In this document: one piece after another, positions 7,143-60,167 of the stretch
How positions within the stretch are numbered: position 1 is the stretch's first letter
Layout of the letters: each line of letters begins with the position of its first letter
Translations under genes and position numbers: made by a program
Assembly (NCBI GenBank): GCA_046292385.1
Contig: JBKBRF010000008.1
Coordinates: 64,001 to 128,000 of the forward strand
From: Armatimonadota bacterium
GTDB taxonomy: Bacteria; Armatimonadota; SYMT01
Direction: 5' to 3'
Length of the DNA stretch: 64,000 nt
The notes under the pieces: generated by a model
What the model saw: the letters and a program-made list of their open reading frames with translations, nothing else
Databases searched by the model: none
Told to the model about the DNA's origin: nothing

Positions 7143-7720
7143 GCAGCGTTGGAACCGCGGGACCGACCCCGAGCCCTAGTCGTCCGCTTCAGCCCTCCCG
7201 CGACGTGTGCCCTCCGCCGGCCCTTTCACACTCCGCTTCGCTCCGTTAGCGGGCCGCTCCGGGTGTTCAGCCTGGCATGCTCTTCCCGCGACTCCGCGCG
7301 CTACCGTGACAGAGGCCCAGTTCACGGGCTGAATCGGCCGCCGTCGAGCTACCGCCCCTGACACCCAGGGGCGGTCACAAAGGGCGTCCTCCGGCAGAGC
7401 CTACGGCTCCGCCTCCGAACGCCACTGGATAGGCCTTCGCTCGCGCTACCGAAGGAGCCTGGAGGCGCTGCCGGAGGCAGCGGCGGAAGGCTCCACCTGT
7501 GGGCACCCCTGGAGAGGGGTGGCTGCTTGAGCCCGGCGGAGTGGCCCGTGAGTCGTTGTATCGAAGAAGGCGCAGCGCCCGAACGCGGCGCGCAGGTCCT
7601 CGCCGCGCACGCCCGGACCAGCCCGTTAGCGCCGGAGGCGCGTGGGAGGGCTGAGGGAGGGCCAACCACGCGGGAGGGCCGGTCCGCCGGGTGAGGGCAC
7701 GGGGTGAAACCTCGGGAAGA
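7143..7720 (+). repeat. Large palindromic non-coding element, copy 1 (A unit ~7143-7425 plus inverted B unit ~7455-7720)
   Basis: Colinear with 16752-17422 (rc), 33637-34247 and 59896-60167. Conserved blocks CCGACCCCG.GCCCT, GCCCTCCCGCG, TTTCAC, TAGC, TCACGGGC and ACC.CCCCT..AGGGG.GGTCAC. Confidence 0.9.
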
Positions 7721-7883
7721 AGCGCTTCTCGTGAAGCGGAAGAACACCCCGGAGAAGGCCTCCCACCTCCCCCGCCGAAGTAGTCGATGGCGGCACGCAC
7801 GTTTTCGCCTAAGCAGGAGCCTGCCTGCTCGCCACAATCTAGGTCGGCACGCGCCGGGGCGTGCCGGTTGCCGGAGAGCCGCG

Positions 7884-8957
7884 ATGGCCCTGTTCCTGCA
7901 GATCCTGGGAATCCTGTTCCTCGTCCTGGTGCTGGTGGTGGTGGGAGGCTTCTTCCTGCTGCGCAGCAAGTTCCGCAAGGCGATGTCTGAACTGGTGGCG
8001 CAGGCCGAGGAGATGAAGTACGGGATCACCCCCACCCGCATCCACCTGCGCCGGCGGGACGCCGTGGCGTGGCAGAATCCGGAGGCGGCGGAATCGTACT
8101 CCAGCGCGCTCCTGGCCCTGGGATTCGAGGACGCGGGCAGCTACGACATCGAGGAGCTCGACTTCGTCCGCCTGCGCGGCTTCGCCCACCCGGGGGAGTC
8201 GGTCTACGCCGCCGTCTACGAGCACGAGAAGGCGGGCACGTGGTTCGACCTCGTCAGCTTCTACCAGGACGGCACCAGCGCCACCTACAGCAACGCGCCG
8301 CGCCTGGCGCAGGGGATGGACCAGCGGCCGGGGCATTCCAAGACGTTCGACAACGGCGCCGACCTGCAGACGCTGTTCCAGCGGATGCTGGCGGAGCGCC
8401 CCGGCGGCGCCCTCTCCCCCGCCACGACCTCCGGGTTCGCGAACGCGCTGGAGCGGGCCTACGCGGACCACATGGACTGGCGCCACGCCCGCGGCCCTTC
8501 CGAGGACGAGATCCGGTTCGTCGCCGCCGAGATGGGAGAAGAGCCCTCCGACGAGCAGCTCGCCGAGGTGCGGGAGCAGCTGGAGCTGCAGTCGCTCGCC
8601 GGTCTGGACGAGAGCCTGCGGGAGCGGTTTCTGGAGCAGTCGAGCCTCTCCGCCGCAGAGTGGGAAGCCGTGCGGGAGCGCGTGGTGATCGTCCACGACC
8701 GCCTCAAGCCGGAGATGCTCGCCGAGCGTTACACCGAATGGGTCAACATGTGCGGCGAGTACGCGGAAGAGGAGGACGAGCGGGAAGAACAGGACGACCC
8801 GGAGTACCAGAAGGCGCTCGCCGCCGCCCGCGTCTCCGAGCCCCGCGCCGCCTTCGCCGCCCTGAACGAGCAGCTCCCGGAAGAGAAGCGGTTCCGCCTC
8901 CTCGGCACCGTGACCTACCCCCTCCCCGCAGCCGTCTACGTCGCTCCGGAGGGATAG
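7884..8957 (+). CDS. Hypothetical membrane-anchored protein
   Basis: ATG after GGAGAG, N-terminal TM (FLQILGILFLVLVLVVVGGFFLL), strong GC3 codon bias, no recognised family. Confidence 0.85.
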   Translation: MALFLQILGILFLVLVLVVVGGFFLLRSKFRKAMSELVAQAEEMKYGITPTRIHLRRRDAVAWQNPEAAESYSSALLALGFEDAGSYDIEELDFVRLRGFAHPGESVYAAVYEHEKAGTWFDLVSFYQDGTSATYSNAPRLAQGMDQRPGHSKTFDNGADLQTLFQRMLAERPGGALSPATTSGFANALERAYADHMDWRHARGPSEDEIRFVAAEMGEEPSDEQLAEVREQLELQSLAGLDESLRERFLEQSSLSAAEWEAVRERVVIVHDRLKPEMLAERYTEWVNMCGEYAEEEDEREEQDDPEYQKALAAARVSEPRAAFAALNEQLPEEKRFRLLGTVTYPLPAAVYVAPEG

Positions 8958-8992
8958 GTCAGCTCTTCACTCGCTATCGCCCGTCGGCACTG

Positions 8993-9424
8993 CTACTGAA
9001 CCCCAGCCTGCCTGGCGCGCCGCGCCTCGCGCAGCCTGGCGAGGCGGCGCCGCATGATGCTGGAGTAGGCGCTCCCGACCATCCAGGCGCCGTAACCGAT
9101 CAGCCCGAGCGTGCGCCAGGGTTCTGGAGCGGCAACGATCGAGATGAGTTGGGGAACAGTGCAAGCTCCGGTGAGCACTCCTTCACCCACGAACACGATC
9201 CACGCTGGCAGGAAGCGTCTCAGCTTGGCGCGAGTCTCCGCCGGGTCCGCCCGGCTCCCGGTCCGGCAGAGGTAGATCCCCCACGCTGCGATGATCATCC
9301 ACGCCGCGCCTGGCAAGATCCACCACTCCGGCGCGTGAAGGATCGCCGCCACCTGCAGCGCTAGTCCTCCGAACACCAGGACTATCGCGAGCCCCGCCGG
9401 CGCCATCATCCGAAGAGTGCGCAC
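8993..9424 (-). CDS. Hypothetical small multi-TM membrane protein
   Basis: About four hydrophobic segments, AGGGG RBS-like sequence upstream of GTG. Codon usage is less biased than neighbours and the start is uncertain. Confidence 0.6.
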   Translation of the reverse strand: MRTLRMMAPAGLAIVLVFGGLALQVAAILHAPEWWILPGAAWMIIAAWGIYLCRTGSRADPAETRAKLRRFLPAWIVFVGEGVLTGACTVPQLISIVAAPEPWRTLGLIGYGAWMVGSAYSSIMRRRLARLREARRARQAGVQ

Positions 9425-9715: not shown

Positions 9716-9846
9716 GGCGCGGCCTAACCCCCCAAACCCTCCCCCGTTCGAGGGACAAGCCTCACCAGAGAGGGAAGGGGAAGTTAGCCCGCTAATCACC
9801 AATAGCTCTCCTCTCCCCTCAGGAGAGGGGCCGGGGGTGAGGCCCT
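9716..9846. repeat. REP-like doublet, family R2
   Basis: CGGCGCGGCCTAACCCCCC...TCCCCCGTTCG.GGGACAAGCCT...TAGCTC.CCTCTCC..TCAGGAGAGGGGCCGGGGGTGAGGCCC, colinear with 62354-62484. Confidence 0.85.
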
Positions 9847-15229: not shown

Positions 15230-16425
15230 GGCATGCTCTCCCGTACGGCCGGGGCGCGGTGCCCGCGGAGTCGCTCCGCCACGCCGAGCGGCAGCAGCGC
15301 GGCCGGCTTGCTCTTTCGCGTGACCCAGAGCTGCAGCGCGGCGCGCGCGAAGGCGTAGCTCTTCAGCCGCCAGCGCGGCGCCACGAGCAGCACAAACGCC
15401 AGCATCCCGCTGAGCGTGGGCGGGTAGAGCGCCAGGTAGCGGATGGCGCGCGTGAACATCGTCCGCTCCGCCTTGTACACCTCGTCGCCGCTCATGAAGT
15501 CGTATTCCCGCCGGCCGCTCTCCCACGCGCGCTGGATGGAGAGGCAGTCGAGCACGCCCCCGGGCGAGAACTTGCGGTAGTCCTCGTCGTAGGCGCCCTG
15601 GTAGAGCCAGATCCGCTCCGGCGTGAGGAAGTTGATCTCGAAGGCGACCGGCTGGCCGTCCATCCGGGCGATCCAGAGCTCCATCTCCTCGCCGCCGCCG
15701 AGCGCCAGGAGCGCCCGACGCAGCAGCTCCTGCCCCTCGCCCGGCTGGAACCGCGCCACGCCTTCGCGTCCCTTCCACGAGCGCGCCTCGATCGCCGCCA
15801 CCTCCTCCACGCGCGCCGCCGCCTCCGCGCCGACGTAGCGCTCCACCGTGCCGCCCTCCTTCAGCCACTTGCGGCCGGCCTTCTGCATCCGCTTCAACCA
15901 GCCGGGGCCGCGGGCGCAGAGCGCGGTCCAGTCGGCGTCCATGGCGGTGTACGGAGCGGTAGTCCCCTCCACCCCCGCGGAGCGGAGGCCCTTCGGCGCG
16001 GGGACGCGCGTCAGCTCCGAGTAGCCGTCGCCAAGCTGCCGGAGCACCGCGAGGTCCCATTCCCCGCGGCGGCGCTGAAGCTCGTCCAGCAGCAGCCGCT
16101 CCGCCTCGGGGCAGTCCGCCGCAAAGAGGAAGCCGAGGTAGTCCGAGCGGCCGTCGCCGATGAATCTCAGCACGCGGAAGCCGAGCTGGCGCTCCCGGCG
16201 CAGCGGCGCCACGCCGACCAGCTCCCCGCCGCGCCGGGCGGTGAGCACGTACGGCTCGCAGCCGGCGCAGAGCTGCTCCCAGCAGATCTCGGTCCAGTCG
16301 AAGCTAAGGAATGGGTTGCGGGGAGCGCTCCGAGCGTAGAGCGCTCCCCATTCTTCACGCAGCGCCCGGAGCTCGCCGGGTGTGCGGAGACATTCGATGG
16401 TCGTTCCGGAGTTGTCCAGGGACAT
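15226..16425 (-). CDS. GNAT family protein, CelD/BcsL-like
   Basis: W..LY....NPFLSFDW, LVGVAPL, SDYLGFL, YQGAYDEDYRKFSPG, YDFMSGDEVYK. Confidence 0.88.
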   Translation of the reverse strand: MSLDNSGTTIECLRTPGELRALREEWGALYARSAPRNPFLSFDWTEICWEQLCAGCEPYVLTARRGGELVGVAPLRRERQLGFRVLRFIGDGRSDYLGFLFAADCPEAERLLLDELQRRRGEWDLAVLRQLGDGYSELTRVPAPKGLRSAGVEGTTAPYTAMDADWTALCARGPGWLKRMQKAGRKWLKEGGTVERYVGAEAAARVEEVAAIEARSWKGREGVARFQPGEGQELLRRALLALGGGEEMELWIARMDGQPVAFEINFLTPERIWLYQGAYDEDYRKFSPGGVLDCLSIQRAWESGRREYDFMSGDEVYKAERTMFTRAIRYLALYPPTLSGMLAFVLLVAPRWRLKSYAFARAALQLWVTRKSKPAALLPLGVAERLRGHRAPAVRESMP

Positions 16426-16751
16426 GGCTTGCTTTTATTGGGAGGCCGGCCGCAGCCGGGCCTGTTGCTTGAGTCTCTAGCGCGGACTTTCAGGCGGCTC
16501 CATCGGGCGTCTGACGCCGGAGCCCGGGGCCCGTCGATCCTGCATCCGGCCGATACTACCCCGGCGTCTGGATCTCAAACCCTTCCCCGGGAACGGAGCG
16601 GGCGCTCTTGCCGGGAGCGGTTCCCTTGCGAGCGCCGGGAGGGCTTGCGGTTTAGGTGGGGGCGTGCCGGGTAGAAGGGAGTGGCCGGCCGGTTCGCGGC
16701 TGGGTTGCAATCCAGCGTGTGAAGGCGAGGATGACCTCATCTTGCAGGAAG

Positions 16752-17422
16752 CGGCATCTCTTCGAAGTTCCACCCCGTGCCCTCACCGGGGGGAGCGGCC
16801 CTCCCGCGTGTTTGGCCCTCCCTCAGCCCTTTCACGCTCCGGCTGCGCCTCCGCTAGCGGGCTGGTCCGGGCGTGCTCTTCGCCAGGCTGTGCTCCGCGT
16901 TCGCAGGCTGCGGTGTCTCCATCACGGCGACTCACGGGCCGCTCCCCCCGGCTCAAGCAACCACCCCTCGCCAGGGGTGGTCACAAGGGGAGCCCTCCGC
17001 CGCTGCCTTCGGCCGCGCCTCCGTGCTCCTTTGGACTGGCTGGCTGCGTCGTGACTGGCTCGGTAGTCCAGAACTCGGACGTCCAGAGGGGCAGCCGCAG
17101 GCTGGACCGGAGGACGGCACCTGTGACCACCCCTGGGCGCCAGGGGTGGTCGCTCGACGGCGGCCGGTTCAGCCCGTTAACCCGGGTTTTGGTGAGATGG
17201 GGGGCCGTGGCGCGGGAAGAGCTTCACGCGGCGCACTCCCGGAGCGGCCTGCTAGCGGAGGCGAAGCCGGAGCGTGAAAAGGCCGCGGAGGGCTCTCGCC
17301 GCGGGAGGGCTGAACCGACCGACTAGGGCGCGGGGTCGGTCCGGCGGTGCCGACGCCGCTCTGAGTTCAGAAATGCCCCGTGTCCGAGTGAGGGCACGGG
17401 GTGGAACCCCGGGGAGATGCCG
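16752..17422 (-). repeat. Large palindromic non-coding element, copy 2 (reverse orientation, extra B-type end)
   Basis: Reverse-complement homolog of 7143-7720. Bounded by a perfect 20-bp inverted repeat GTTCCACCCCGTGCCCTCAC (16767-16786 / 17388-17407). Confidence 0.9.
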
Positions 17423-17474
17423 TCACCGGGAAGTAATCCTACAGAAACGGTCAAGAGAAGAGACAAAGAACACG

Positions 17475-18692
17475 ATGCGCATCCTCCTCCTCACCAGCTA
17501 CTTCCCCCGCTCCACCGACCCGGTGCGCGGCATGTTCAACTACCAGCAGGCGCACGCGCTGGCGCGGCACTGCGAGGTGAAGGTGGTGGCGCCGGTGCAG
17601 TGGTTCCCGGTGCGACTCTGGCACGGGGCCGGGCCGGACTCCGCCCCGTACCGGGAGACCGTGGGCGAGCTGACCACGTGGCACCCGCGCTACTTCCTGC
17701 CGCCGCGGATTGGGCGGGACTTCTACTCGCTGCAGATGGCGGCGTGGGTGCTGCCGCGGTTGGCCCGCATCCGGCGGGAGTACCCGTTCGACGTCCTCCT
17801 CGCCACCTGGGCGTTCCCGGACGTGATCGTCGGCGCGCTGGCCGCGCGGTTGTGGAACGTGCCGCTGCTGGCGAAGGTCCACGGCAGCGACATCAACGTG
17901 CAGACCGACTTCCCCCTGCGGCGAAAGCAGATCCGCTGGGCGCTGGACCAGGCGCACCGGGTCCTCGCGGTGAGCGGCGCGCTGCGCGAGCGGCTGATCG
18001 GCCTCGGCGTGCCGGCGGAGCGGATCATGGTCCACCACAACGGGGTCGACCGCGAGCGCTTCCGCCCCGGTGACCGCGCGGAGGCCCGTCGTCATCTGAA
18101 GATCCCGGTCGAGGGGAAGGCGCTGGTCTACGTCGGCTACATGAATCCACCCAAGGCGGTGAACGTGCTGATCGACGCCCTGGGGGAGCTGCGCGCCTCC
18201 GGCCGGCTCGACTTCACCGCACACCTGGTCGGCTGCGGCCCGCTCAAGGAGGACCTGGAGGCGCAGGCCCGCTCCCTCGGGCTGGCGGAGTCGGTCGTCT
18301 TTCACGGTCGCCGGCCGCACGACGAGATCCCGCACTGGATGCGCGCCGCGGACGTCTTCTGCCTCCCGAGCATCCGGGAAGGCTGCCCGAACGTGGTGCT
18401 GGAAGCGCTCGCGAGCGGCTGCCCGCTCGTCTCTACGAGGGTCGGGAGCGTGCCGGATATGGTCGACCCTACCGCCGCCGTCCTCGTCCCGCCCGGCGAG
18501 TCCTCCCCCCTGGCGGAGGGGATCCGCACGGCGCTCGACCGGCAGTGGGATCCGGAGGCGCTGCGACGCAGCGTGAGCCACTACGACTGGGATACCAGCG
18601 CCCGCGCCCTCTACGAGGCGGCGTGCGAGGCGGTAGAGCTGCGGAGGGCGCCCCAGCCGGAGCGAGCGCTCGCGGCTAACTCGGAGGGGTAG
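17475..18692 (+). CDS. GT4 family glycosyltransferase (TuaC-like)
   Basis: MRILLLTSYFP, KVHGSDIN, HNGVDRERFRP, ADVFCLPSIREGCPNVVLEALASG (E-x7-E). Confidence 0.93.
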   Translation: MRILLLTSYFPRSTDPVRGMFNYQQAHALARHCEVKVVAPVQWFPVRLWHGAGPDSAPYRETVGELTTWHPRYFLPPRIGRDFYSLQMAAWVLPRLARIRREYPFDVLLATWAFPDVIVGALAARLWNVPLLAKVHGSDINVQTDFPLRRKQIRWALDQAHRVLAVSGALRERLIGLGVPAERIMVHHNGVDRERFRPGDRAEARRHLKIPVEGKALVYVGYMNPPKAVNVLIDALGELRASGRLDFTAHLVGCGPLKEDLEAQARSLGLAESVVFHGRRPHDEIPHWMRAADVFCLPSIREGCPNVVLEALASGCPLVSTRVGSVPDMVDPTAAVLVPPGESSPLAEGIRTALDRQWDPEALRRSVSHYDWDTSARALYEAACEAVELRRAPQPERALAANSEG

Positions 18693-18694
18693 AG

Positions 18695-18828
18695 CTTCCG
18701 GGCGGTTGAAACCGCGGCAACCACGGCACGAAGTCCCCCTCCGGGGACTCGGGACAGCCTGGTTCGGGCGTCCGGAGGACGCTTGGCCGCAGGCCGCACA
18801 GCGAGGTATTCTAATGCCTCGCGGCCCG
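18695..18828 (+). repeat. REP-like composite repeat, family R3
   Basis: CTTCCGG.CGGTTGAAACCGCGGCAACCACGGCACGAAGT...CGTCCGGAGGACGCT...GCGAGGTA..AATGCCTCGCGG. Homologs at 36663-36816 (rc) and 56856-56920. Confidence 0.85.
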
Positions 18829-19079
18829 GCGCGCGGCTATCCGGCCGCTTCCGCTGCGGCTACCGCCGGGCGAGCTGATCCAGCTTCTGCTCCACCACGC
18901 CGATACCGCAGAGCAGAAGCCCGGAGACCCGGCGTTCCCCCGATGAGCCCCCCTTCTCGCTCCATTGGTACTTCCCGTATGGCACCAGCCGGTCCGTATC
19001 GAACCAACCGGTATGCGTTCCTCCGCTGCTCACGGGTGAGCGCGACGGTACGAGGGCGGGAAGCGCGGCGGGTGGACCG

Positions 19080-19790
19080 ATGCTAGAGATCAGGCACAAG
19101 CGTTCCGGAAAGCTCCTCTACCGCAGTGACGACTGGAGAGTCGACGCCCGCGGGCGGGAGCTCATCGGCGCTCACCTGTCCGGATGGAGCCTGCGGGAGG
19201 CGCGACTCCGTGGCGTCGATCTCCGCGGCAGCAGCCTGGACGGTGCGGACCTGAGCGGTGCCGATCTGCGCGGTGCCCGTTTTCGCGGAGCCTCCTTTCG
19301 GGATGCCGTTGCCATCCCCGCGGGTGCGCTGGCCGCACTACTCCTGGCGTTTGCCGGGACCACTCCGTCGATCTGGCGGAACTGGTGGCTCAACCCGAGT
19401 CTCTACTTCGGGGTGATGGTGGCCGGCGCACTGGTCGTTTCACTCCGCTCGGACCGGGCGCTCTTTGAAGACGCCACCCTGGACGGCGCACAACTGGACG
19501 GTGCCCACTACGACCGAGAGACCACCTGGCCGCGCGGCTTCGATCCCCAGGCTCATGGCGCCGTGCGGGTCCAGCCCGCCGCGGCCGCGAGCCGGGGGCC
19601 GTTCTCGATCCTGAAGCGGATCGACCTTTCGCTGGTCGTCGCGGCGCTCCTCGCCTGCTCCGCGGTCGGGTTCATCGTCGTCGGCTTCGAAGACGGGAAT
19701 TGGCTGCGCCTTTCGGCAGGCATCTCCAACACGTTCATGGCGGGGTGGCTCCTCTGGTCCCGCCGTCGAGTTGCCGGGGAGGCGGAGTGA
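19080..19790 (+). CDS. Pentapeptide-repeat membrane protein
   Basis: A(D/R)LxG pentapeptide tract, GAHYDRETTWPRGFDPQAHGA cap motif, several TM segments. Confidence 0.8.
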   Translation: MLEIRHKRSGKLLYRSDDWRVDARGRELIGAHLSGWSLREARLRGVDLRGSSLDGADLSGADLRGARFRGASFRDAVAIPAGALAALLLAFAGTTPSIWRNWWLNPSLYFGVMVAGALVVSLRSDRALFEDATLDGAQLDGAHYDRETTWPRGFDPQAHGAVRVQPAAAASRGPFSILKRIDLSLVVAALLACSAVGFIVVGFEDGNWLRLSAGISNTFMAGWLLWSRRRVAGEAE

Positions 19791-19964
19791 CCGCGGCGGA
19801 AGTCGAGGAGCTCGAGGGGCGCTGTCTGGAGCGAGCGCGGGCGCAGCCTCTCATCGCCGCGACAGGCTACCTGCCGGTGCTGGATGCAGGAGGCGTTCCG
19901 CAGCGTGGTCGCGGAGACAGGCGCGTAGCCGCCGAGGTTTCGGAGCTACCGGAGCAATCAGAGC

Positions 19965-20543
19965 ATGCTAACGCGAACGCACTTGTCGCTCGTCCTCGTG
20001 GCGCTGCTCACCTTCTCCGGCAGTCTTCTCATCATCGGGGGAGTTCACGGTGGTGGATGGCTCCGGCTCTCGACCGGGGTCTGCAACGTGATCGTGGCCG
20101 GCGTGATCCTCCGGGGCCTGCTCCGGCCGGCTGGACCCGGGCCCGAACCAGTATGGCACGGGCAATCGGATCCGAGTGTGACGCCGCCGGACGGCGCCTT
20201 CGGAGTGAGCCCTCCGCAAGAGCGGCAGCGGACGTTGCGCTGGCTGCGGAGCCTTACTGACAAGGGATTCGCCGAGCTCTTCTACGAAGCGGTGAAAGAT
20301 CGTAAAACGGACGGTGGCTACGGACACTTCGTCCTGGCCGAGGCAGCGAGACGTGACCTCATAGAAGGTCCCTGGGACGTTGACTTCATCGGGCTCCATG
20401 ATCGAGAGCACTACGGCGGCGAGTGGGACGACGATGCCCCAATCTGCCAATCCGGAACCTGCCGCGAGTGTGGAGTTGACGTGCGAAGCTGGGCTAAGGA
20501 AGCAGTGTGTCCAGTCTGCGGCTCCAAGGTGTACGGAACCTAG
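19965..20543 (+). CDS. Hypothetical protein: N-terminal 2-TM hairpin plus C-terminal Zn-ribbon-like CxxC...CxxC
   Basis: ATG with GGAG upstream, CRECG...CPVCG, atypical codon usage. Confidence 0.6.
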   Translation: MLTRTHLSLVLVALLTFSGSLLIIGGVHGGGWLRLSTGVCNVIVAGVILRGLLRPAGPGPEPVWHGQSDPSVTPPDGAFGVSPPQERQRTLRWLRSLTDKGFAELFYEAVKDRKTDGGYGHFVLAEAARRDLIEGPWDVDFIGLHDREHYGGEWDDDAPICQSGTCRECGVDVRSWAKEAVCPVCGSKVYGT

Positions 20544-20557
20544 AGCCGTCGGGAACG

Positions 20558-20599
20558 CTTCGGCGGGTGCCTGCGGTGGATGAAAGGCACCCGCCGAAG
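20558..20599. terminator. Perfect 15-bp stem-loop between convergent genes (likely bidirectional terminator)
   Basis: CTTCGGCGGGTGCCT / AGGCACCCGCCGAAG with a 12-nt loop. No strong U tract. Confidence 0.6.
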
Positions 20600-20611
20600 T
20601 ATCTCCTACTC

Positions 20612-21022
20612 CTATCGCACCACCAGGACGGAGCACTCCAGGCGGTCGACGACCGACTTGGCGGTGCTGCCGAGGAAGAACTCCTCCAGCGCGCCGACGC
20701 CGCGGTGTCCGACGACCACCAGGTCGTAGCTCCCTTCCTTGGCGGCGAGGACGATCGCGTCGTCGGGCGCTTCGACGGAGACCTGCGCGTCGGCGGTGAC
20801 GCCGCTCTCGCGGGCGCGAGCCGCTCCGGATTCGGCGCAGCGGCGGCCGAGGTCCTCGTCGGCGGACATGGTGACCACGCCGTCCTCGCGGACCAGGCGG
20901 TCGGAAGCGGCGGTGAGCACGGTGAGGGAGGCGCCGCACGCCTTCGCCAGCTCGATCGCCCGGTCGAGGGCATGGGTGGCGGCTTCGGAGCCATCATAGC
21001 CGACGAGAATGCGCTGGATCAT
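20612..21022 (-). CDS. Universal stress protein (Usp family)
   Basis: MIQRILVGYDGS, DLVVVGHRG...FFLGST, CSVLVVR. Confidence 0.95.
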   Translation of the reverse strand: MIQRILVGYDGSEAATHALDRAIELAKACGASLTVLTAASDRLVREDGVVTMSADEDLGRRCAESGAARARESGVTADAQVSVEAPDDAIVLAAKEGSYDLVVVGHRGVGALEEFFLGSTAKSVVDRLECSVLVVR

Positions 21023-21912
21023 CGTTTCCGTCCTGCCGCGGGGTAGATCAGGTAGACCTGCCGGCCCGTTTCCGCGGCGAGTAGATGCCCGGTGCCGGTA
21101 GTCACGTAGAGCGTAGAAAGGGTCGGACCGCCCCAGGTGCAGTTGGTGGGACGGTCGTACGGTACCGGGTGCGTGGCGAGCACCCGGCCCGTGGGGCTGA
21201 AGACGTAGATCATCGGGCCGGGGCCGCTCTCGGCCCAGCCGGCGGTCGCCACGATGTTGCCCTCCGCGTCCAGGCACATCCCGTCGATGCCGCGGTGCGG
21301 ATAGAAGTTGTGGAGCACGCCGTGCTCTCCCAGGGAGCCGTCGTCGTGGATCGGGTAGGCGCGCAGCTCCCGCTTGCGATCGGCGCCGTACTCGCTCTGC
21401 GCCACGTAGAGCGTCCGTCCGTCCGGAGAGACCAGCAGTCCGTTCGGCCGGGTGGTGTCCCAGGTGACCCGGTGCAGGCTCCAGCCGCCGTCCGGCTGCG
21501 GGTCGGCGCGGTAGACCGACTCGTGATCCAGCTCCATGTCCTCGCGGAAGTCGCCGTAGCGAGGATCGGTGAACCAGAGGCGGCCCTGCGGATCGAAGGC
21601 GAGGTCGTTCGGGCTGTTCAGCCGCCTGCCTTCGAACCGGTCGGCGATCACCGTCTCACCGTCCGCGTCGTAGCGTACCACGCGGCGCTCGCCGCCCCCG
21701 CCCTGGCAGCCGTAGAGGCGGCCGTCGGCGTCGAAGATCAGGCCGTTCCCCTCGAAGGTGCCCTCGCGGTAGACCGTCGTCTCGCCGGTCTTCGGGGAGT
21801 AGCGCATGATGCGGCTGGCGGGGATGTCGGCGAAGAGCACCGCCTCACCATCCCACGCCGGCCCCTCCGCGAAGCCGACCGGCCCCGCCACCGTCTCGAA
21901 GACCCAGTCCAT
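21019..21912 (-). CDS. SMP-30/gluconolactonase family protein
   Basis: FAEGPAW, RLNSPND, WFTDPRYG, RPNGL, GIDGMCLD, PTNCTWGG. Confidence 0.92.
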   Translation of the reverse strand: MDWVFETVAGPVGFAEGPAWDGEAVLFADIPASRIMRYSPKTGETTVYREGTFEGNGLIFDADGRLYGCQGGGGERRVVRYDADGETVIADRFEGRRLNSPNDLAFDPQGRLWFTDPRYGDFREDMELDHESVYRADPQPDGGWSLHRVTWDTTRPNGLLVSPDGRTLYVAQSEYGADRKRELRAYPIHDDGSLGEHGVLHNFYPHRGIDGMCLDAEGNIVATAGWAESGPGPMIYVFSPTGRVLATHPVPYDRPTNCTWGGPTLSTLYVTTGTGHLLAAETGRQVYLIYPAAGRKR

Positions 21913-21936
21913 CCGTCTCGCCCTCTCTGCCCGGCG

Positions 21937-22287
21937 TCAGGCGCTGAGCTCGCTGAAGATCTGGTCGGTCTTCGCCGCGGAGATGAAGTCGTTCCGGTGC
22001 AGGCCGCGGATCTTGTGCGTCCACCAGCTCACCGTCACCCGCCCCCACTCGGTCAGGATCGCCGGATGGTGGCCTTCGTCCTCCGCGAACTCCCCTACCC
22101 GGTTCGTAAAGGCGAGTGCCTCGGCGAAGTTCTTGAACTTGAACTGTCGCTCCAGCCGCGGGATGCCGTCCTTTTCCAGCAGCTCCCACTCCGGAATCTG
22201 CGGCTTCAGCTCGGCGATCTCCGCCTCGGTCACTCTCGGGGCGTCGGCACGGCATGCAGTACACTTTTCGCTGGTCAGCTCTGCCAC
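21937..22287 (-). CDS. phhB: Pterin-4-alpha-carbinolamine dehydratase
   Basis: [53 protein letters not shown]. Confidence 0.93.
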
Positions 22288-22340
22288 GTGAATCTCTCCT
22301 CCTGTGGGGGCTAGTGGGTCGAAGGGCCGGGGTCTTCGGT

Positions 22341-22450
22341 GGGGCCTCACCCCCGGCCCCTCTCCTGAGAGGAGAGGGGAGCTACGGGTGTTTTGCCTGC
22401 CTGGCCTCCCCCTTCCACTTCAGGAAAGGGGGTTGGGGGGTTAGGCCGCG
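22341..22450. repeat. REP-like doublet, family R2
   Basis: GGGGCCTCACCCCCGGCCCCTCTCCTGAGAGGAGAGGGGAGCTA ... CCCCTTCCACTTCAGGAAAGGGGGTTGGGGGGTTAGGCCGCG. Confidence 0.85.
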
Positions 22451-22600
22451 AAAGAACGCCGACCCATCGTCCTCCCCCTGAAACCCGACCCCTGATCCCT
22501 GCCCTTCACGTGGTATATTCTGTCCTCGTTCATGGTTCCCTGTCGCGGCAGCGATGCCGCGCCTGTTTCGCCGCTGGAGATGCGGCCGGAGGTGAGCTCG

Positions 22601-22837
22601 ATGCCCGTTCCCGTGCGCCAGGCCGATATGGACGCCGTCTTCCGCGTGACCGACGAGCTGGGGATCCACCGGGAATCGGTGACGGTGCCGCTGGCACGCC
22701 AGGATCCGGGCGGGGTGAAGGACCTGGGCGGCGGGCAGCTCCGGATCACGCTGCCGGAATCCGAGGAGCCGGACGCCTGGGCGGAGGGCACGCTGCGGGG
22801 GGAGCTGGAGAAGCTCGGCTACGAGCCGCTTCCGTGA
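22601..22837 (+). CDS. Small hypothetical protein (78 aa)
   Basis: GGAGGTGA RBS before ATG, strong GC3 bias. Confidence 0.75.
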   Translation: MPVPVRQADMDAVFRVTDELGIHRESVTVPLARQDPGGVKDLGGGQLRITLPESEEPDAWAEGTLRGELEKLGYEPLP

Positions 22838-22957
22838 TCGCGGCGGTCGCCGGCGGAACCGCCCGCGCGGGGGACCGGTATTCAGTGCATGGCAGGGCGG
22901 CGCGCGACGCCGCGCGCGGGGGGCGGCCCCGGCGCCACTCCCTCTGCCGGTTCTCCT

Positions 22958-23830: not shown

Positions 23831-23952
23831 ACTCAGTTGCAGGTGGTCAGGTTGCAGGTTTCAGGTTGGCTGCTAACGATGGAATGAGCCAGTCCGCGGA
23901 TCGGCTGCACCTTAAACCCTAAACCCTAGGCCCTAGACCAGACCCTCTCCCC

Positions 23953-24723: not shown

Positions 24724-24728
24724 CGCGC

Positions 24729-25670: not shown

Positions 25671-25868
25671 GGTCGGCAGAGTGTAAGAAAAGGAGATGTG
25701 GGGATGAAAGCTGGGGATATGGCGATGGGAACCAGCGGGTGAGCAGGCCCGACCCTCTCATCGACGCGTTAGAATTCAGCCTTTAGCCTTTTGCCTTTAC
25801 TATCCCCTCATCCCCGTTCCCACATCCCCCCATCCCCTGAAAGGTTCGGGCTCTCTTCGCTCGCTGAC

Positions 25869-27002: not shown

Positions 27003-27117
27003 GATCGAGACCCCTGCGGTGAGAGCACGAGGAAGCGGCTGGAGCGCGGCCGCATTGGCGGTGCGCTGGACATGTTAACAGGGTATACGCGCGGCGGGGC
27101 TCCCGCAACTTGAGTAT

Positions 27118-27357: not shown

Positions 27358-27460
27358 GCTCTCCCCGCGCCGTGGTGCAGCGCAGCGCGATCCGCGGAAC
27401 GGCTCGAACAGCTGCCTCCGCCGCTCGCTCTCTGTCGCTCCGTCCCTCTGTCTCTCCGTC

Positions 27461-29380: not shown

Positions 29381-29407
29381 CTCTGGAGAATCCTGTCCCG
29401 ACCTCAA

Positions 29408-31938: not shown

Positions 31939-31942
31939 GGGG

Positions 31943-44926: not shown

Positions 44927-46237
44927 TTACGCTTCGACGTCGCGGATCTCCGCCGTCTCCTGCAGCGTCTTCGCCACCTTCCCCATCAGGATGTTGTGGC
45001 GGATCACGTCGATCTCGCCGGTCTCGTTGGCGAGGCGGCGGACCTGCGAGAGCTTCACGCTCTGCTGCTCGGCGCGGATCTTGAGCTCCGCTTCCACTTC
45101 CTTGTTGTCGACGGTGAGGCCGCGCTCGCGGGCGAAGTCGAGCAGCACGAGGGTGTGCGTCAGGCTCTCCAGCGACTGCTGCTGCAGGCTCTCCTGCAGC
45201 GTCTGCAGGTCGGTCTCTTCCGCCTCCAGGTACTGCTCCAGGGTGAGACCGCGCCGCTCCAGCGCCTTGATCAGGTCCGCCATGCGGCTGGAGACCTGGC
45301 GCTCCAGCATCTCCGGCGGGAAATGGACCTCGGAGCGCTTCACCAGCTCTTCCACCAGGCTGTCGTTCAACTCCCGCTCGGCGGTGATGTCGGCATGCTG
45401 CTGCAGCAGCCCCCGCACCCGCTCCCGCACCGCCTCGGCCGTCTCGAAGCCGGCGCGCTTGGCGAACTCGTCGTCCAGCTCCGGCACCTCGCGGCGCCAC
45501 ACCTCGCTCACCTCGATGTGCGCCTGCGCCTGCTTGCCGCGGTACTCCTCGTCCTGGTAGTCCTCCGGGAAGCTGAAGTCGAAGTCCTTCGTCTCGTTCG
45601 GCTTCACGCCGCGGAGGCCGGCGTCGAGCGTCTCCAGGTTGGCGCCCACCTCGATCAGCGTCGGCTCGGGGAAGCTGACGTCCGGGATCGGCTGCCCGTC
45701 TACCGTCACCGCCACGGTGGTGCGGATCCGGTCGCCATCCTGGCTTGGGTCGTCTACCTGCTTGAAGGTAGCGGCGCTCTCACGGATGCGAGCCAGCTCC
45801 CGCTCCACCTCTTCATCGGTTACCTGGGTCACCACCCGGCGGGCGGTGAAGCCATCCAGGTTGCCCAGATGCACGTGCGGCTCCAGCGAGACGGTGGCGG
45901 TGAACTGGAAGCCGTTGGTCGGATCGATCTCTTCTTCGCCGAGGTCGACTTCCGGCTCCGCGTAGCGGTACGGCGCCACGCCGGTCTGGCGCAGCGCGTC
46001 GCGGTAGGCGTTGTTCAGCACCCGCTCCATCGCGAGGTCGCGCACGCGGCCCTCGTCCACGAACCGCTCGATCAGGTGCTTCGGCGCCTTGCCCGGGCGG
46101 AAGCCGGGGACGGTGGTCCGCTTGGCGAACTGCTGGTAGACGGAGTCGATCGCCTTCTGGACCTCCTCCGCGGGCACCTCGACTTTGAGCTTGACCCGGG
46201 TGTGGTCCAGAAACTCGTGCTCTACTTGAACGGCCAT
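44927..46237 (-). CDS. tig: Trigger factor
   Basis: VPGFRPGKAP ribosome-binding signature, ELDDEFAK. Confidence 0.96.
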   Translation of the reverse strand: MAVQVEHEFLDHTRVKLKVEVPAEEVQKAIDSVYQQFAKRTTVPGFRPGKAPKHLIERFVDEGRVRDLAMERVLNNAYRDALRQTGVAPYRYAEPEVDLGEEEIDPTNGFQFTATVSLEPHVHLGNLDGFTARRVVTQVTDEEVERELARIRESAATFKQVDDPSQDGDRIRTTVAVTVDGQPIPDVSFPEPTLIEVGANLETLDAGLRGVKPNETKDFDFSFPEDYQDEEYRGKQAQAHIEVSEVWRREVPELDDEFAKRAGFETAEAVRERVRGLLQQHADITAERELNDSLVEELVKRSEVHFPPEMLERQVSSRMADLIKALERRGLTLEQYLEAEETDLQTLQESLQQQSLESLTHTLVLLDFARERGLTVDNKEVEAELKIRAEQQSVKLSQVRRLANETGEIDVIRHNILMGKVAKTLQETAEIRDVEA

Positions 46238-46355: not shown

Positions 46356-46427
<72 letters not shown>

Positions 46428-46454
46428 GTGTCTGGGGCTTTAACCCGGATCCAG

Positions 46455-46536
46455 TGGGCGAGGAGGGACTCGAACCCTCACGGATTGCTCCACTAGATCC
46501 TAAGTCTAGCGCGTCTGCCAATTCCGCCACTCACCC
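46455..46536 (-). tRNA. tRNA-Leu(TAG)
   Basis: GGGTGAGTGGCGGAATTGGCAGACGCGCTAGACTTAGGATCTAG..., long variable arm, GGTTCGAGTCC. CCA not encoded. Confidence 0.97.
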
Positions 46537-46553
46537 CCGGGTGGTGCCGGCGA

Positions 46554-46626
<73 letters not shown>

Positions 46627-58304: not shown

Positions 58305-58314
58305 AGAGAGCTGC

Positions 58315-59760
58315 TTATCCGAAGAGGGCAGTGACCGGCCGGCCGCCCTCGATGAGCGGGGTGGGCCGGCCTTCCGGGTCGGGGACGTGCATGTGGGGGT
58401 CGAGGCCGAGCGCCTGGTAGAGGGTGGCCGCGAGGTCTTCCGGGCTGACCGGGTTCTCGGTGGGGAATGCCGCTTCCGCGTCGGAGGCGCCGTAGCATGT
58501 GCCGCCGCGAACGCCGGCCCCGGCAACCAGCGCCGGGAAGAGGGTGCTCCAGTGGTCGCGGCCCCAGCGGCCGTTCGCCTTCGGAGTCCGGCCCATCTCG
58601 CCCAGCATCACGACCAGCGTCTCATCGAGCAGGCCGCGGTCGTGGAGGTCTTCCAGCAGCGCGGAGGCGGCCTGGTCGGTGGTCGGCATCAGGTGCTTCG
58701 TGACGTCGTCGCTGTGCACGTGGGAATCCCAGCTATAACCGTCGCAGCAGTCGTAGTGGACCGTTACGAAGCGGACCCCCGCTTCCACCAGGCGGCGCGC
58801 CATCAGGCACGACTGCCCGAAGAGGTGCCGCCCGTAGCGGTCCCGCAGCGCGGCCGGCTCTTCCTTCAGGTTGAGGGCGCGGTAGGTGCGGTCGGAGCAG
58901 GCGAGCCCGAGGGCGCGCTGACGGAAGCGGTCGAAGCTCGCGACGGTGGTGTCGGCGTCCAGCAGCCGACGGCGGTCGTCGAGCTGCTCCAGCAGGCCGC
59001 GGCGGCGCTCCAGGCGGTCGAGCCGCACCTCGCCGCGGGACGACTGCCCCTGGAGCTGGAACGTCAGCTCCTCGTCGGTGCAGTCCCGCCAGTACGGGTT
59101 GTCCTTCAGGTCCCGCTTGGCGACCGCCGTCGTGAGCGGGTTGTAGGCCTTGCCGAGCCAGCCGGCGTGCTCACCCGGCCGGGGGTACTGCCCCGCTTCC
59201 TGCAGGATGCCCAGGGAGTTGGGGAGGACCATGTAGGCCGGCAGAGTGCGGGCGGCACCGCCGGACGCCTGCTGCGCCGCGTACTCCACCGCGGAGCCGA
59301 TGGAGGGCCAGTCCTTCGGTGTGGGGCTGAAGCCGCCGCCGATCGGCACGTGCCAGCGGTGACCGGTCTGGATATAGTGGGCGCCCCCGCTGTGATCGTT
59401 GAAGTCGTGCGTCATCGTGCGGATGACGCAGTAGCGGTGCGAGAGCTGCGCGAGCTTCGGGAGCGATTCGGAGACGAGCAGGCCGGGCGTCCGGGAGGGG
59501 ATCGGCTTGTAGGGTCCGCGGATGCTGCTGGGAGCGTCCGGCTTGAGGTCGAACGTCTCGAGCTGGCTGGGCCCGCCGAAGAGAAAGAGGAAGATCACGC
59601 TCTTCGCGCGGGCTCCCCGCGGCGGTGCTCCCCGAAGCTCTTCCGCGGCCAGCACGCGCGGCAGGCTCAAGCCAAGCAGCCCGGTCCCGGCAGCCTGGAG
59701 GAGCTGCCGGCGCGCGGTGCCGTCGCAGGCGCGTCGCGGGCGGGAGGTGATCGAGAGCAC
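58315..59760 (-). CDS. DUF1501 family protein
   Basis: RRQLLQ leader, GGPSQLETFDLKP, ARRLVEAGVRFVT, WDSH, GEMGRTP, GRDHW. Confidence 0.93.
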   Translation of the reverse strand: MLSITSRPRRACDGTARRQLLQAAGTGLLGLSLPRVLAAEELRGAPPRGARAKSVIFLFLFGGPSQLETFDLKPDAPSSIRGPYKPIPSRTPGLLVSESLPKLAQLSHRYCVIRTMTHDFNDHSGGAHYIQTGHRWHVPIGGGFSPTPKDWPSIGSAVEYAAQQASGGAARTLPAYMVLPNSLGILQEAGQYPRPGEHAGWLGKAYNPLTTAVAKRDLKDNPYWRDCTDEELTFQLQGQSSRGEVRLDRLERRRGLLEQLDDRRRLLDADTTVASFDRFRQRALGLACSDRTYRALNLKEEPAALRDRYGRHLFGQSCLMARRLVEAGVRFVTVHYDCCDGYSWDSHVHSDDVTKHLMPTTDQAASALLEDLHDRGLLDETLVVMLGEMGRTPKANGRWGRDHWSTLFPALVAGAGVRGGTCYGASDAEAAFPTENPVSPEDLAATLYQALGLDPHMHVPDPEGRPTPLIEGGRPVTALFG

Positions 59761-59895
59761 GCGGGATCTCCGGGGTGGCGGTTGCTCTTATCAGAGTTTC
59801 GGGAGGGGCTGCGGTTTCGCGGGAAACGGGCATTCAGCCGTATCCATGGGCGCTCGATCGGTCGGACGCCTCTGGTGGTGGATCTCTTCCCCTGG

Positions 59896-60167
59896 GCAGC
59901 GTCGAGTCCGTGGCTCCGACCCGCGCCCTTGTCGGCGGAGACAGCCCTCCCGCGGCGAGTGCCCTCCGCGGTCTTTTCACGCCCTTCGGGCTAGCAGACC
60001 GCTCCGGGAGTCCGCCCCGTGTGGCTCTTCCCGCGTCACTGCGCTCTACCGCGTCAATGGTAGGGTTCACGGCCTGTCTCCGCCGCCTTCGAGCGAGCCC
60101 CCTGCGCCCAGGGGGCTCACAGGTGGCGTCCTGCGGCCCAGCCTTCCGGCTGTGCCTCCGGACGCCG
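59896..60167 (+). repeat. Large non-coding element, copy 4 (A unit only)
   Basis: Colinear with 7143-7425. Hairpin GAGCCCCCTG/CAGGGGGCTC (60095-60118). No B unit follows. Confidence 0.85.

Follow-up and report, generated by a model that had tools for sequence, protein, structure and literature searches.

The seven half-units in the window (the whole stretch of 64,000 nucleotides analysed here, from an Armatimonadota bacterium) are copies of an intergenic repeat of ~290 nt that is present in ~140 copies in the genome. This dispersed family has the half-unit as its basic module, and the strand running from the inner to the outer end of a half-unit has one conserved fold. The evidence supports selection on that one folded strand. 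Judged from its sequence, the element resembles a structured RNA of an undescribed kind more than it does a single-stranded DNA signal.

A dispersed repeat family

An HMM built from the seven half-units (Table 1) gave 156 matches in the genome with nhmmer, 134 of them spanning at least 200 model positions, and a covariance model (R1) gave 142. The covariance model also found 15 and 8 matches in two other genera of the same taxonomic family, and zero in the remaining 148 genomes sampled from the phylum, a narrow range of 3/151. Nearest-neighbour identity between copies has a median of only 0.84, and the youngest copies are 94-97% identical. An Rfam search of the whole window returned nothing at the gathering score, and one of positions 7000-7900 returned nothing at E up to 10; the phage and plasmid collections searched gave zero matches.

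Two subfamilies, A and B, can be told apart among the copies. By subfamily clustering, each of the 25 adjacent pairs joins an A to a B copy, head-to-head, and genome G005 holds four head-to-head pairs. Within a doublet the halves are just 61% alike and fold on opposite strands. One subset of copies lies between a fixed left end (LE) and right end (RE), while most copies are without such ends; those of composite unit 3 are common to ~25 copies in the genome. The full composite measures ~770-800 nt, against ~400 nt for an internal-deletion form, LE-B-RE. The ends are unlike each other and non-inverted, with subterminal hairpins. Neither terminal inverted repeats nor a consistent target duplication was found, no pair of composite ends encloses a transposase gene, and no poly-A-like tails were found at the copies. 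Short TCTGT-type arrays flank composite copies beyond their outer ends.

Table 1. Half-units, composite unit and mini-hairpins in the window. Hairpins are read on the inner-to-outer strand.
Feature	Positions	Strand	Description	Basis
Half-unit 1A, subfamily A	7121-7436	-	core fold P2-P10 at 7153-7378	nhmmer C8:71436-71121; covariance model C8:71153-71378
Half-unit 1B, subfamily B	7433-7750	+	core fold 7499-7718; head-to-head with 1A	nhmmer, covariance model, subfamily clustering
Half-unit 2B, subfamily B	16723-17050	-	core fold 16759-16984	nhmmer, covariance model
Half-unit 2A, subfamily A	17050-17381	+	core fold 17123-17349; head-to-head with 2B	nhmmer, covariance model
Half-unit 3A, subfamily A, cluster 7	33616-33942	-	core fold 33646-33871	nhmmer, clustering, covariance model
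Half-unit 3B, subfamily B, cluster 4	33953-34284	+	core fold 34026-34250	nhmmer, clustering, covariance model
Half-unit 4A, solo, subfamily A	59875-60197	-	core fold 59905-60120	nhmmer, covariance model
Composite unit 3	33517-34320	+	left end begins CTGTGCTGCTCACG, 3A (reverse complement), 3B, right end closes with GCCGCGTGGTG	sequence reading of left end; right-end match C8:98295-98320
P9 of 1A	7235-7241	-	GC-GAA-GC	sequence reading
P9 of 1B	7629-7641	+	GCGCC-GGA-GGCGC	sequence reading
P9 of 2B	16841-16849	-	GGC-GCA-GCC	sequence reading
P9 of 2A	17260-17268	+	GGC-GAA-GCC	sequence reading
P9 of 3A	33727-33733	-	GC-GCA-GC	sequence reading
P9 of 3B	34160-34168	+	GCC-GCA-GGC	sequence reading
P9 of 4A	59981-59991	-	GCCC-GAA-GGGC	sequence reading
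P1 tip of 1B	7468-7480	+	CTGCC-GGA-GGCAG	sequence reading
P1 tip of 3B	33996-34008	+	CTGCC-GGA-GGCAG	sequence reading
P1 tip of 1A	7398-7408	-	AGCC-GTA-GGCT	sequence reading
P1 tip of 2A	17092-17104	+	CAGCC-GCA-GGCTG	sequence reading
P1 tip of 2B	17005-17013	-	GCC-GAA-GGC	sequence reading
P1 tip of 4A	60139-60152	-	CAGCC-GGAA-GGCTG, tetraloop	sequence reading
P1 tip of 3A	33877-33893	-	GGCGCCC-AGA-GGGCGCC, loop not GNA	sequence reading

Selection on one folded strand

Read from inner to outer end, the fold spans ~270 nt and has at least nine helices. P1 is a 5' hairpin and P2 a hairpin of 10-12 bp. The closing helix P3 (GCUC/GGGC) and the long-range helix P4, of 15 bp, jointly close off a multi-branched arm (P5-P9), which is followed by a 3' hairpin (P10). 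Some copies have hairpin modules inserted at helix tips. The substitution patterns support one part of what the initial annotation had proposed, namely that a single strand, always of the same polarity, is under selection for its fold. Covariation is heavy in the long-range helix, and in an alignment of 40 copies 20 of the 49 predicted pairs have compensatory changes. There, 97.5% of cells are paired, as against 84.9% after shuffling (reached in 0/500 shuffles) and 35-51% with the partner column slid out of register. For 18 distinct copies from the two other genera the values are 92.7% and 80.0% (0/500), in an alignment that is model-fitted and leans towards structure, with 26 of the 49 pairs changed on both sides. 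The strand itself is marked by an excess of G·T (224) over A·C pairs (17) in the two best helices, P4 and P2, and by C>T exceeding G>A by 66 to 10 among stem substitutions, compared with 495 and 571 outside stems. Folding energy is lower on the sense strand in 63/63 tested copies. Copies differ from their subfamily consensus by 18.2% outside stems and by 9.3% within them, and 96.0% of pairs are canonical where ~72% would be expected under neutral decay. Solo and paired copies are structurally intact to the same degree (94.4% vs 94.5%).

Three traits point to RNA more than to DNA: wobble pairs that are conserved, conserved loops rich in A, and the multi-way junction. A U·G pair in P3 is kept in 119/120 copies (40/40 in the alignment, 18/18 in the two other genera) and another in the GUG/CGC helix in 40/40 and 18/18, respectively, while G·U makes up ~9% of cells overall (180/1954, summed from the 40-copy table). 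Adenine occupies 25% of unpaired columns vs 7.5% of paired ones, and 13 of the 37 conserved unpaired columns are A. Counting against RNA, recovery of consensus pairs is 0.51 with RNA parameters and 0.54 with DNA parameters, and folding energies are likewise no better with RNA.

GNA triloops as helix caps

A C-GNA-G mini-hairpin had been reported in every half-unit, and all seven are present, flanked by TAGC/TAAC and GTG(A/G). Their stems vary with pairing kept and strand polarity constant. These hairpins top P9. The second hairpin described near the inner end, at the tip of P1, was likewise confirmed, including the tetraloop of 4A; the 3A copy with its AGA loop was absent from the earlier list. 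The proposed genome-wide tabulation of loops, scored as C-GNA-G plus at least one further closing pair, places the motif at P9 in 118/120 full-length copies, beyond chance. The loops are GAA (59), GCA (45), GGA (13) and GTA (1), on stems of 2 bp (40), 3 bp (46), 4 bp (24) or 5 bp (8), and the two exceptions are a GAAA tetraloop and an irregular copy. At the P1 tip, C-GNA-G is found in 74/120 copies within a preset scoring interval that clips the shortened hairpin of subfamily A7. Most of the 46 misses are A7, which by eye reads GGCGCC-C-GGA-G-GGCGCC; a few have 4-nt loops (GAAA, GGAA, GTAA, GCAA, GTTA) or AAA.

The exceptional stability that the initial annotation ascribed to d(GCGNAGC), with much weaker RNA counterparts, agrees with a published account, which places such hairpins at the phage G4 origin, RSF1010 ssiA and N4 promoters (PMC13037366). 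The greater stability of these caps as DNA counts against an RNA reading. What found no support was the use of the triloop as a mark of DNA over RNA. It caps two helices of a large fold with invariant U·G and conserved unpaired A, and its form and position are not kept in other genera: G005 does not retain the C-G-closed triloop, and the loops of P1 are different in both G005 and G006. Natural RNA triloops are similar, being often purine-rich and C-G-closed (PMC9074901). Because C-G closure and position are lineage-specific, the triloop caps a helix and does not form the conserved core; nor would it be the functional core on an RNA reading, because relatives cap the same helices otherwise.

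Genomic context and competing explanations

Gene positions were taken from a GC3 heuristic and not from annotation; by these, the downstream gene lies on the same strand as the copy in 64 cases and on the opposite strand in 70, and the upstream gene in 65 and 63. Solo copies between co-directional genes are sense in 20 cases and antisense in 22, and of the intergenic regions that hold the 27 doublets, 7 are divergent, 8 convergent and 12 tandem. Orientation is random, and read-through RNA is therefore not favoured. Neither a sigma-70-like promoter nor an intrinsic terminator was detected in units 1 and 3, by a scan ill-suited to an organism of 69% G+C, and upstream of solo copies no conservation was seen past a short A-rich leader. 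No linked HUH, TnpB, reverse-transcriptase or IS110 genes were found near the copies.

On balance we lean towards the fold working as RNA, a structured unit of ~270 nt that would have spread like a mobile element, mainly as divergent A/B doublets. Each module would be a structured RNA, probably protein-binding or otherwise trans-acting. The modules may have multiplied with a preference for such doublets, a younger subfamily being packaged between the fixed ends, and the GNA triloops could serve as compact caps that this lineage favours, GNRA-like, with a sheared G·A on top of a closing C-G pair. A rather unlikely alternative is a role as single-stranded DNA. The fold would then be a strand-specific signal, exposed during replication, transfer or transposition and recognised by a nuclease, transposase or primase (HUH/RAYT cleavage or ssi/primosome-like priming), with its d(C-GNA-G) mini-hairpins as hyperstable nucleation points that resist SSB. 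The near-constant triloop at P9, repeated at the P1 tip, its stability as DNA and the occurrence of such hairpins at the known sites (PMC13037366) would fit such a role. So would the composite ends and the DNA folding parameters, which recover the consensus as well as the RNA ones, and equal conservation in either gene orientation is more easily explained by a DNA-level function than by a promoterless-looking RNA. The RSF1010 ssiA/ssiB sites resemble head-to-head, opposite-strand doublets, which we count for this explanation. Against it, two T·G mismatches inside helices of 3-5 bp are invariant in three genera and would weaken a DNA fold without visible reason, the C-G-closed triloop is not retained in G005 and P1 loops vary between the genera, and the phage and plasmid collections hold no match. 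We know of no single-stranded DNA signal with a ~270-nt multi-way junction closed by long-range helices, and this too we count against it. The folding strand is, if anything, rarer on the lagging-strand template, which is the G-rich strand (30 vs 50 at 10 kb, 34 vs 46 at 50 kb), a weak under-representation. Nor did the suggestion that the triloop marks an HUH substrate find support: none of the five Y1 matches in the genome adjoins a copy, the best of them (RAYT-like) is flanked by its own, unrelated REP, Y1 genes occur in three genomes without the element, and, in contrast to IS200/IS605 ends, the halves of a doublet fold on opposite strands.

That the family is an ordinary non-autonomous transposon (MITE), with recent copying and duplex transposase-binding sites of which the fold is a by-product, seems improbable. 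The fixed composite ends with their LE-B-RE derivative, the near-identity of the youngest copies and the very unequal copy number across genera (142, 15 and 8) speak for it. Those ends are missing from most copies, though, and lack inverted repeats, a consistent target duplication or an enclosed transposase gene; duplex binding sites cannot yield compensatory changes or the excess of G·T over A·C, and structure is kept far above neutral expectation after 18% divergence. In the window, 7/7 half-units face a gene reading away from them, as a riboswitch-like leader might, but the random orientation genome-wide, the mixture of intergenic types around doublets, the near-even split of solo copies between sense and antisense and the lack of terminator-like tails in units 1 and 3 make a cis-regulatory leader, or a 3' stabiliser or terminator of neighbouring genes, very unlikely. 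A reverse-transcription template, retron-like or SINE-like, would likewise be structured, multi-copy and strand-specific; with zero RVT_1 matches in a genome that is 98% complete, and neither poly-A-like tails nor target duplications, it is scarcely credible.

Comparison with known systems

The d(GCGNAGC) initiation signals of G4, RSF1010 ssiA and the N4 early promoters share with the element an identical C-GNA-G, short variable stems and strand-specific polarity. They are single small hairpins in phage and plasmid single-stranded DNA replicons, whereas here the motif caps a large fold in ~140 chromosomal copies, has no phage or plasmid counterpart and is not conserved in related genera. IS200/IS605 ends, their protein-less derivatives (PATEs), TnpB omega-RNA and IS110 bridge RNA are similar in that their two ends are unlike and have subterminal hairpins, in that they lack inverted terminal repeats, and in that a structured RNA or DNA of 150-300 nt is tied to mobility. 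Unlike these, the element occurs in a genome in which no TnpB was found and in G005, where no IS110 transposase was found; Y1 genes do not lie beside its copies, doublets fold on opposite strands and most copies are without fixed ends. REP/BIME and REPIN sequences (RAYT, Y1 HUH) are also abundant, intergenic, often in inverted pairs and read as single-strand hairpins, but REPs are simple hairpins of 20-40 nt compared with a 290-nt multi-helix fold. Doublet halves, only 61% alike, cannot pair together, and the RAYT-like gene of the genome bears its own REP.

The closest analogue is the multi-copy TwoAYGGAY doublets of Pseudomonas (Rfam RF01731). A preprint that extends their model (bioRxiv 10.64898/2026.09.22.753630) counts tens to hundreds of these elements, 68.4% as divergent doublets, with short repeats at their flanks. 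The element belongs to another phylum, where its range is 3/151 sampled genomes. It has no sequence or model match to TwoAYGGAY in the Rfam searches above and no AYGGAY loops, and its fold is larger, at ~270 nt with long-range helices. Its doublets are always A+B, and its TCTGT-type arrays lie outside the composite outer ends and not between paired elements. Both are nonetheless covarying, structured intergenic motifs in many copies, strongly enriched in divergent doublets and adjoined by arrays of 5-6-nt repeats and by larger repeats.

Triloop Mini-Hairpins in the Window and Across the Genome

The initial annotation had placed a C-GNA-G triloop mini-hairpin in all seven half-units of the window, the ~290-nt intergenic repeats 1A to 4A of subfamilies A and B, and a second hairpin near their inner ends. 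Both descriptions hold. The first hairpin, which caps helix P9 of the predicted fold, is present in 7/7 half-units, on the strand reported and between TAGC or TAAC and GTG(A/G). The inner hairpin, at the tip of helix P1, is likewise as described, the tetraloop of 4A included, and those of 2B and 3A can be added.

Features of the half-units in the window and of hairpin insertions in other copies (rc, reverse complement; P9 entries are sequence readings)
Feature	Position	Strand	Description
P9 mini-hairpin of 1A	rc of 7235-7241	-	GC-GAA-GC
P9 mini-hairpin of 1B	7629-7641	+	GCGCC-GGA-GGCGC
P9 mini-hairpin of 2A	17260-17268	+	GGC-GAA-GCC
P9 mini-hairpin of 2B	rc of 16841-16849	-	GGC-GCA-GCC
P9 mini-hairpin of 3A	rc of 33727-33733	-	GC-GCA-GC
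P9 mini-hairpin of 3B	34160-34168	+	GCC-GCA-GGC
P9 mini-hairpin of 4A	rc of 59981-59991	-	GCCC-GAA-GGGC
Inner hairpin of 4A	rc of 60139-60152	-	GGAA tetraloop
Inner hairpin of 2B	rc of 17005-17013	-	GCC-GAA-GGC; absent from the initial annotation
Inner hairpin of 3A	rc of 33877-33893	-	shortened, AGA loop; absent from the initial annotation
Unit 3, long composite form	33517-34320
Hairpin insertions	P2 loop: L095, L097, L124; after GTGAAAGG: L086, L117; also L117, L121

The loops were then tabulated, as had been proposed, over the 120 genomic copies that span at least 250 model positions. C-GNA-G with at least one further pair lies between TAGC and GTGAAA in 118 of them, and the mark of the d(GCGNAGC) class, C-GNA-G on a short G+C stem, is found at P9 in 7/7 window copies and 118/120 genomic ones. 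The loops of these 118 copies read GAA (59), GCA (45), GGA (13) and GTA (1), on stems of 2 bp (40), 3 bp (46), 4 bp (24) or 5 bp (8). Loop base N varies and polarity is constant in the genomic copies, so that the refuting outcome named in the initial annotation, a random loop base together with random polarity, was not encountered. At the inner hairpin 74/120 copies score as C-GNA-G inside a fixed scoring window; the misses come mostly from one subfamily, in which a shortened hairpin that reads C-GGA-G by eye is clipped by that window, and a few have 4-nt loops (GAAA, GGAA, GTAA, GCAA, GTTA).

A Single Folded Strand Under Selection

Column-pair statistics (120 copies), RNAalifold and an alignment-based fold prediction (40 copies) all agree on one fold. 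It is predicted to begin with a 5′ hairpin (P1) and to end with a 3′ hairpin (P10). Between them would lie a 10-12-bp hairpin (P2, GUGACCACCCC...), a closing helix GCUC/GGGC (P3), a 15-bp long-range helix around ~130 nt (P4), a 3-bp GUG/CGC helix and an arm, P5-P9, with the mini-hairpin at its tip. In the 40-copy alignment (A2), 20 of the 49 predicted pairs show compensatory double changes, and 97.5% of cells are paired vs 84.9% in shuffles, none of 500 of which reaches the observed value; pairing falls to 35-51% when the partners are slid by 1-3 columns. In some copies, the small hairpin modules GCCCG-CTTG-CGGGC, CCCCC-GAAC-GGGGG and CACCC-GTAC-GGGTG are inserted at helix tips. Hairpins resembling CCCCCGAACGGGGG also occur in the flanks of other copies. 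Readings of the conserved G-rich stretches as a K-turn, a CsrA-type GGA loop or a G-quadruplex were weighed by eye and dropped, because every G-tract pairs with a C-tract in a covarying helix and because loop N varies.

Three observations indicate that it is the inner-to-outer (sense) strand of each half-unit that folds. In P4 and P2 taken together there are 224 G·T against 17 A·C cells. From G-C consensus pairs in stems, changes of C to T (giving G·T) number 66 vs 10 of G to A (giving A·C), whereas outside stems the two are balanced at 495 to 571. Finally, folding energy is lower on the sense strand in 63/63 copies tested. Divergence from the subfamily consensus amounts to 18.2% outside stems and 9.3% within them, and 96.0% of pairs remain canonical, where neutral decay would leave ~72%. 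Solo copies are as well preserved as paired ones, with 94.4% vs 94.5% of pairs kept and 97.6% vs 97.3% identity at conserved unpaired columns. Since few copies have close siblings, conservation in place would be a simpler explanation than a hundred independent source lineages. Covariation, strand asymmetry and pair retention therefore bear out the initial proposal of selection on a single folded strand, be it RNA or DNA.

The same structure is found in two other genera of the family, represented by genomes G005 and G006. In 18 distinct copies from these genomes, aligned by fitting to the model, 92.7% of cells are paired vs 80.0% in shuffles (0/500 as high), and 26/49 pairs are changed on both sides. 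The caps differ. P9 in G005 is mostly CGAG-GGA-CGAG, in which a G-C pair above tandem G·A closes a GGA loop, and G006 retains GC-GGA-GC within a longer insert; P1 loops in both are of 3-5 nt and non-GNA. The C-G-closed GNA triloop is thus a habit of the window's lineage and lies outside the conserved core.

Distribution of the Element

The seven half-units were built into an HMM, which has 156 matches in the genome of the window, a draft of 7.04 Mb in 91 contigs with 69% G+C, and 134 of these cover at least 200 model positions. A covariance model (R1) built from A2 gives 142 matches in this genome, 15 in G005 and 8 in G006, and none in 5 other genomes of the order. Under stricter filters, with 15 candidates scored per genome, only 3/151 sampled genomes of the phylum have R1 matches. 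When one half-unit was compared by BLAST with 40 relatives, only the genome of the window was found, so that a covariance model is needed to reach the relatives. A pattern scan of metagenomes returned 10 loci, in 7 of which R1 gives 8 matches. The same kind of scan over a collection of genome contigs returned at least 68 single matches from unrelated genomes rich in G+C, and nhmmer confirmed none of these as a copy. Viral contigs, phages and plasmids had no match to the element. Rfam 15 at gathering score reports three tRNAs and no family for the element in the 64-kb window; at E up to 10, window 7000-7900 yields only five chance-level matches, all of at most 17 bits. A thin search of the full-text literature on multi-copy structured repeats and triloops brought up no description of it. 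The element is an undescribed, narrowly distributed and highly multiplied structured element.

Other features of the window were recorded in passing. Three tRNA genes at 46356-46626 (-) lie directly upstream of a gene at 44927-46237 (-), whose identity as trigger factor was confirmed by comparison with a protein atlas. A second repeat family, a palindromic unit of ~50 nt (GGGCCTCACCCCC..CCCCTCTCC-loop-GGAGAGGGG), occurs in both orientations at 3124-3174, 9797-9845, 22342-22396 and 62435-62485, the copies being 83-92% alike. An inverted repeat of 40 nt, 98% complementary, lies at 18695-18734 and 36776-36815; both copies fall in very high summed metagenome contig depth, and it is probably another abundant repeat.

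Doublets and Composite Copies

Clustering separates the copies into two superfamilies, A (clusters 7, 11, 6, 5 and 10) and B (4, 2 and 3). Members of one cluster share 78-81% identity, and paired halves ~61%. The 120 copies include 25 adjacent pairs, every one a head-to-head doublet of an A and a B with its two folds on opposite strands (25/25); head-to-head pairs recur four times in G005.

Fixed ends that are unlike each other enclose about 25 copies; the left one starts CTGTACTACTCACCG and the right one finishes GCCGCGCTGTG. The long composite form (left end, A, B, right end) measures ~770-800 nt and the short one (left end, B, right end) ~400 nt, with no ORF between the ends. The composites, 94-97% identical, are the youngest members of the family, whose median nearest-neighbour identity is 0.84. 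Just outside their ends TCTGT occurs at 0.41 (22 left flanks) and 0.65 (26 right flanks) per 80 nt vs 0.017 expected, a figure for composite copies only and one to which just 4/22 left and 11/26 right flanks contribute. Terminal inverted repeats, a mark of MITEs, are absent, the two ends being unlike. No consistent target-site duplication, the other such mark, was found; 18/24 A-type solo copies share a 6-8-mer between their flanks, at inconsistent positions. Contigs from four DNA runs over window 16001-36000 break at the repeats, and an empty site was not recovered from them. One joint, which links 33563 to 33986 across 21 intervening letters, corresponds to the deletion form (left end joined to B) of other genomic copies and is therefore probably cross-mapping.

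Smaller features were noted as well. Arrays of TCTGT, CAGGTTG/AACCTGC and CGTATT lie just outside composite ends elsewhere in the genome, and the window has short-motif arrays, TTAGCC/TTTGCC-like and CGTATT-like, at 25762-25798, 35815-35865 and 31943-31998 / 32054-32109. Half-unit 3′ tails are partly duplicated in places: a 23-nt direct repeat follows 1A (7067-7089 and 7144-7166), and a B-type 3′-end fragment follows 2A (about 17387-17440), with a comparable duplication on contig C3 (164964-165366). A 26-kb stretch of contig C40 (13600-40000) has eight half-units, full or partial, all on one strand and in successive intergenic regions; no constant neighbouring gene was seen there.

Gene Context and Mobile-Element Enzymes

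By our own GC3-based gene calls, copy and downstream gene share a strand in 64 cases and lie on opposite strands in 70; for the upstream gene the figures are 65 and 63. Solo copies between co-directional genes are sense in 20 cases and antisense in 22, and by our own tally the intergenic regions that hold the 27 doublets are divergent in 7 cases, convergent in 8 and tandem in 12. With orientation random genome-wide, the divergent-gene setting of the four window units is coincidental, and a role of the element as leader or terminator is unlikely. Scans of units 1 and 3 for sigma-70 promoters and terminators, poorly suited to this organism, found nothing.

The suggestion that the copies are substrates of an HUH nuclease found no support. 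Five matches to the Y1 transposase domain (PF01797), two of them strong (on contigs C51 and C22), exist in the genome and none adjoins a copy; the best of these genes has a different REP of its own, Y1 genes are likewise present in genomes that lack the element, and the halves of a doublet lie on opposite strands. The gene in question (C51, 25920-26261, L001) is RAYT-like, with a 145-aa frame; inverted copies of its REP, GCGAGGGGTT..AACCCCTCGC, stand on either side of it, and it is unrelated to the element. Compared with local GC skew, the 80 solo copies divide 30:50 (10 kb), 31:49 (25 kb) and 34:46 (50 kb) into same and opposite sign, a weak bias, measured on a draft assembly, that runs opposite to the lagging-strand-template expectation. 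TnpB (PF07282) has 0 matches in the genome, and no reverse transcriptase was found in it. IS110 (PF01548) has 2, with unrelated flanks, and none in G005. An insertion sequence of this family makes up the whole 1413-bp contig C91 (L126), with a 406-aa frame and ~240 nt of non-coding sequence upstream; a short contig of its own is as expected of a multi-copy IS.

It is conceivable, if rather improbable, that in a protein-less mobile module the active part would be the fold itself. A ~270-nt RNA or ssDNA would then act as guide, as ribozyme- or DNAzyme-like catalyst or as priming signal for its own copying, and the module would spread as obligate divergent A/B heterodoublets, its ~140 copies kept intact by selection, without reverse transcriptase, TnpB or an adjacent transposase.

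RNA or Single-Stranded DNA

Which molecule folds was judged from sequence features, and on balance these lean somewhat towards RNA. Two U·G pairs inside short helices are invariant in 40/40 copies of the genome and in 18/18 of G005 and G006 (one of them in 119/120), and G·U makes up ~9% of all paired cells of A2 by our own sum. Adenine accounts for 13/37 conserved unpaired positions and for 25% of unpaired vs 7.5% of paired columns. These features favour RNA, as do the multi-way junction closed by long-range helices and the hairpin insertions at helix tips. Triloops of natural RNAs, too, are often rich in purines and C-G-closed (PMC9074901), which counts for RNA as well.

The initial annotation took the folded strand to be ssDNA rather than RNA. 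Its folded single strand under selection stood; its choice of DNA is not supported, the invariant U·G pairs, the A-rich unpaired positions and the multi-way junction pointing rather to RNA, and we regard it as unlikely. The cap is indeed the classic hyperstable d(GCGNAGC), in agreement with PMC13037366, which also gives the RNA form as much weaker. DNA would further suit the lack of a visible promoter (in the ill-suited sigma-70 scan) and the free orientation of copies relative to genes. The consensus fold is recovered equally by DNA and RNA energy parameters, which do not discriminate the folding molecule. Signals of the d(GCGNAGC) type come from single-stranded phage or plasmid replicons or origins and serve a primase or RNA polymerase, whereas the ~140 copies here are chromosomal and intergenic and match no phage, plasmid or viral sequence. 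The C-GNA-G triloop alone is insufficient as a DNA signature.

Comparison with Known Systems

Should the folding strand be RNA, the element would be an undescribed class of large structured RNA whose population biology is unusual: a single genome has ~140 copies, paired as two diverged subtypes, with purifying selection on every one. Alongside TwoAYGGAY of Pseudomonas it would also provide an independent second example of structured RNA genes acting like mobile elements, and would make the spread and role of such elements approachable in another phylum. Should it be ssDNA, a bacterial chromosome would for the first time have been seen to carry a large multi-helix DNA fold under selection. Under either reading, the covariation-supported R1 offers a search tool and a basis for the design of probing experiments.

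In IS200/IS605 and REP-RAYT systems the required hairpins lie on one (top) strand, whereas the doublet folds on both; unlike omega-RNAs and bridge RNAs, the element has neither TnpB/IscB nor an IS110 recombinase encoded beside it. In behaviour it comes closest to TwoAYGGAY, a structured motif of unknown function that occurs in tens to hundreds of copies, forms doublets of which 68.4% are divergent and is accompanied by short repeat arrays (bioRxiv 10.64898/2026.09.22.753630). The element resembles it in being multi-copy (142), with all 25 adjacent pairs divergent and four such pairs in G005. It differs in the lack of an RF01731 match in the Rfam search of the window, in GNA rather than AYGGAY loops, in its larger fold, in its obligate A/B pairs and in its phylum, and it stands outside the TwoAYGGAY family.
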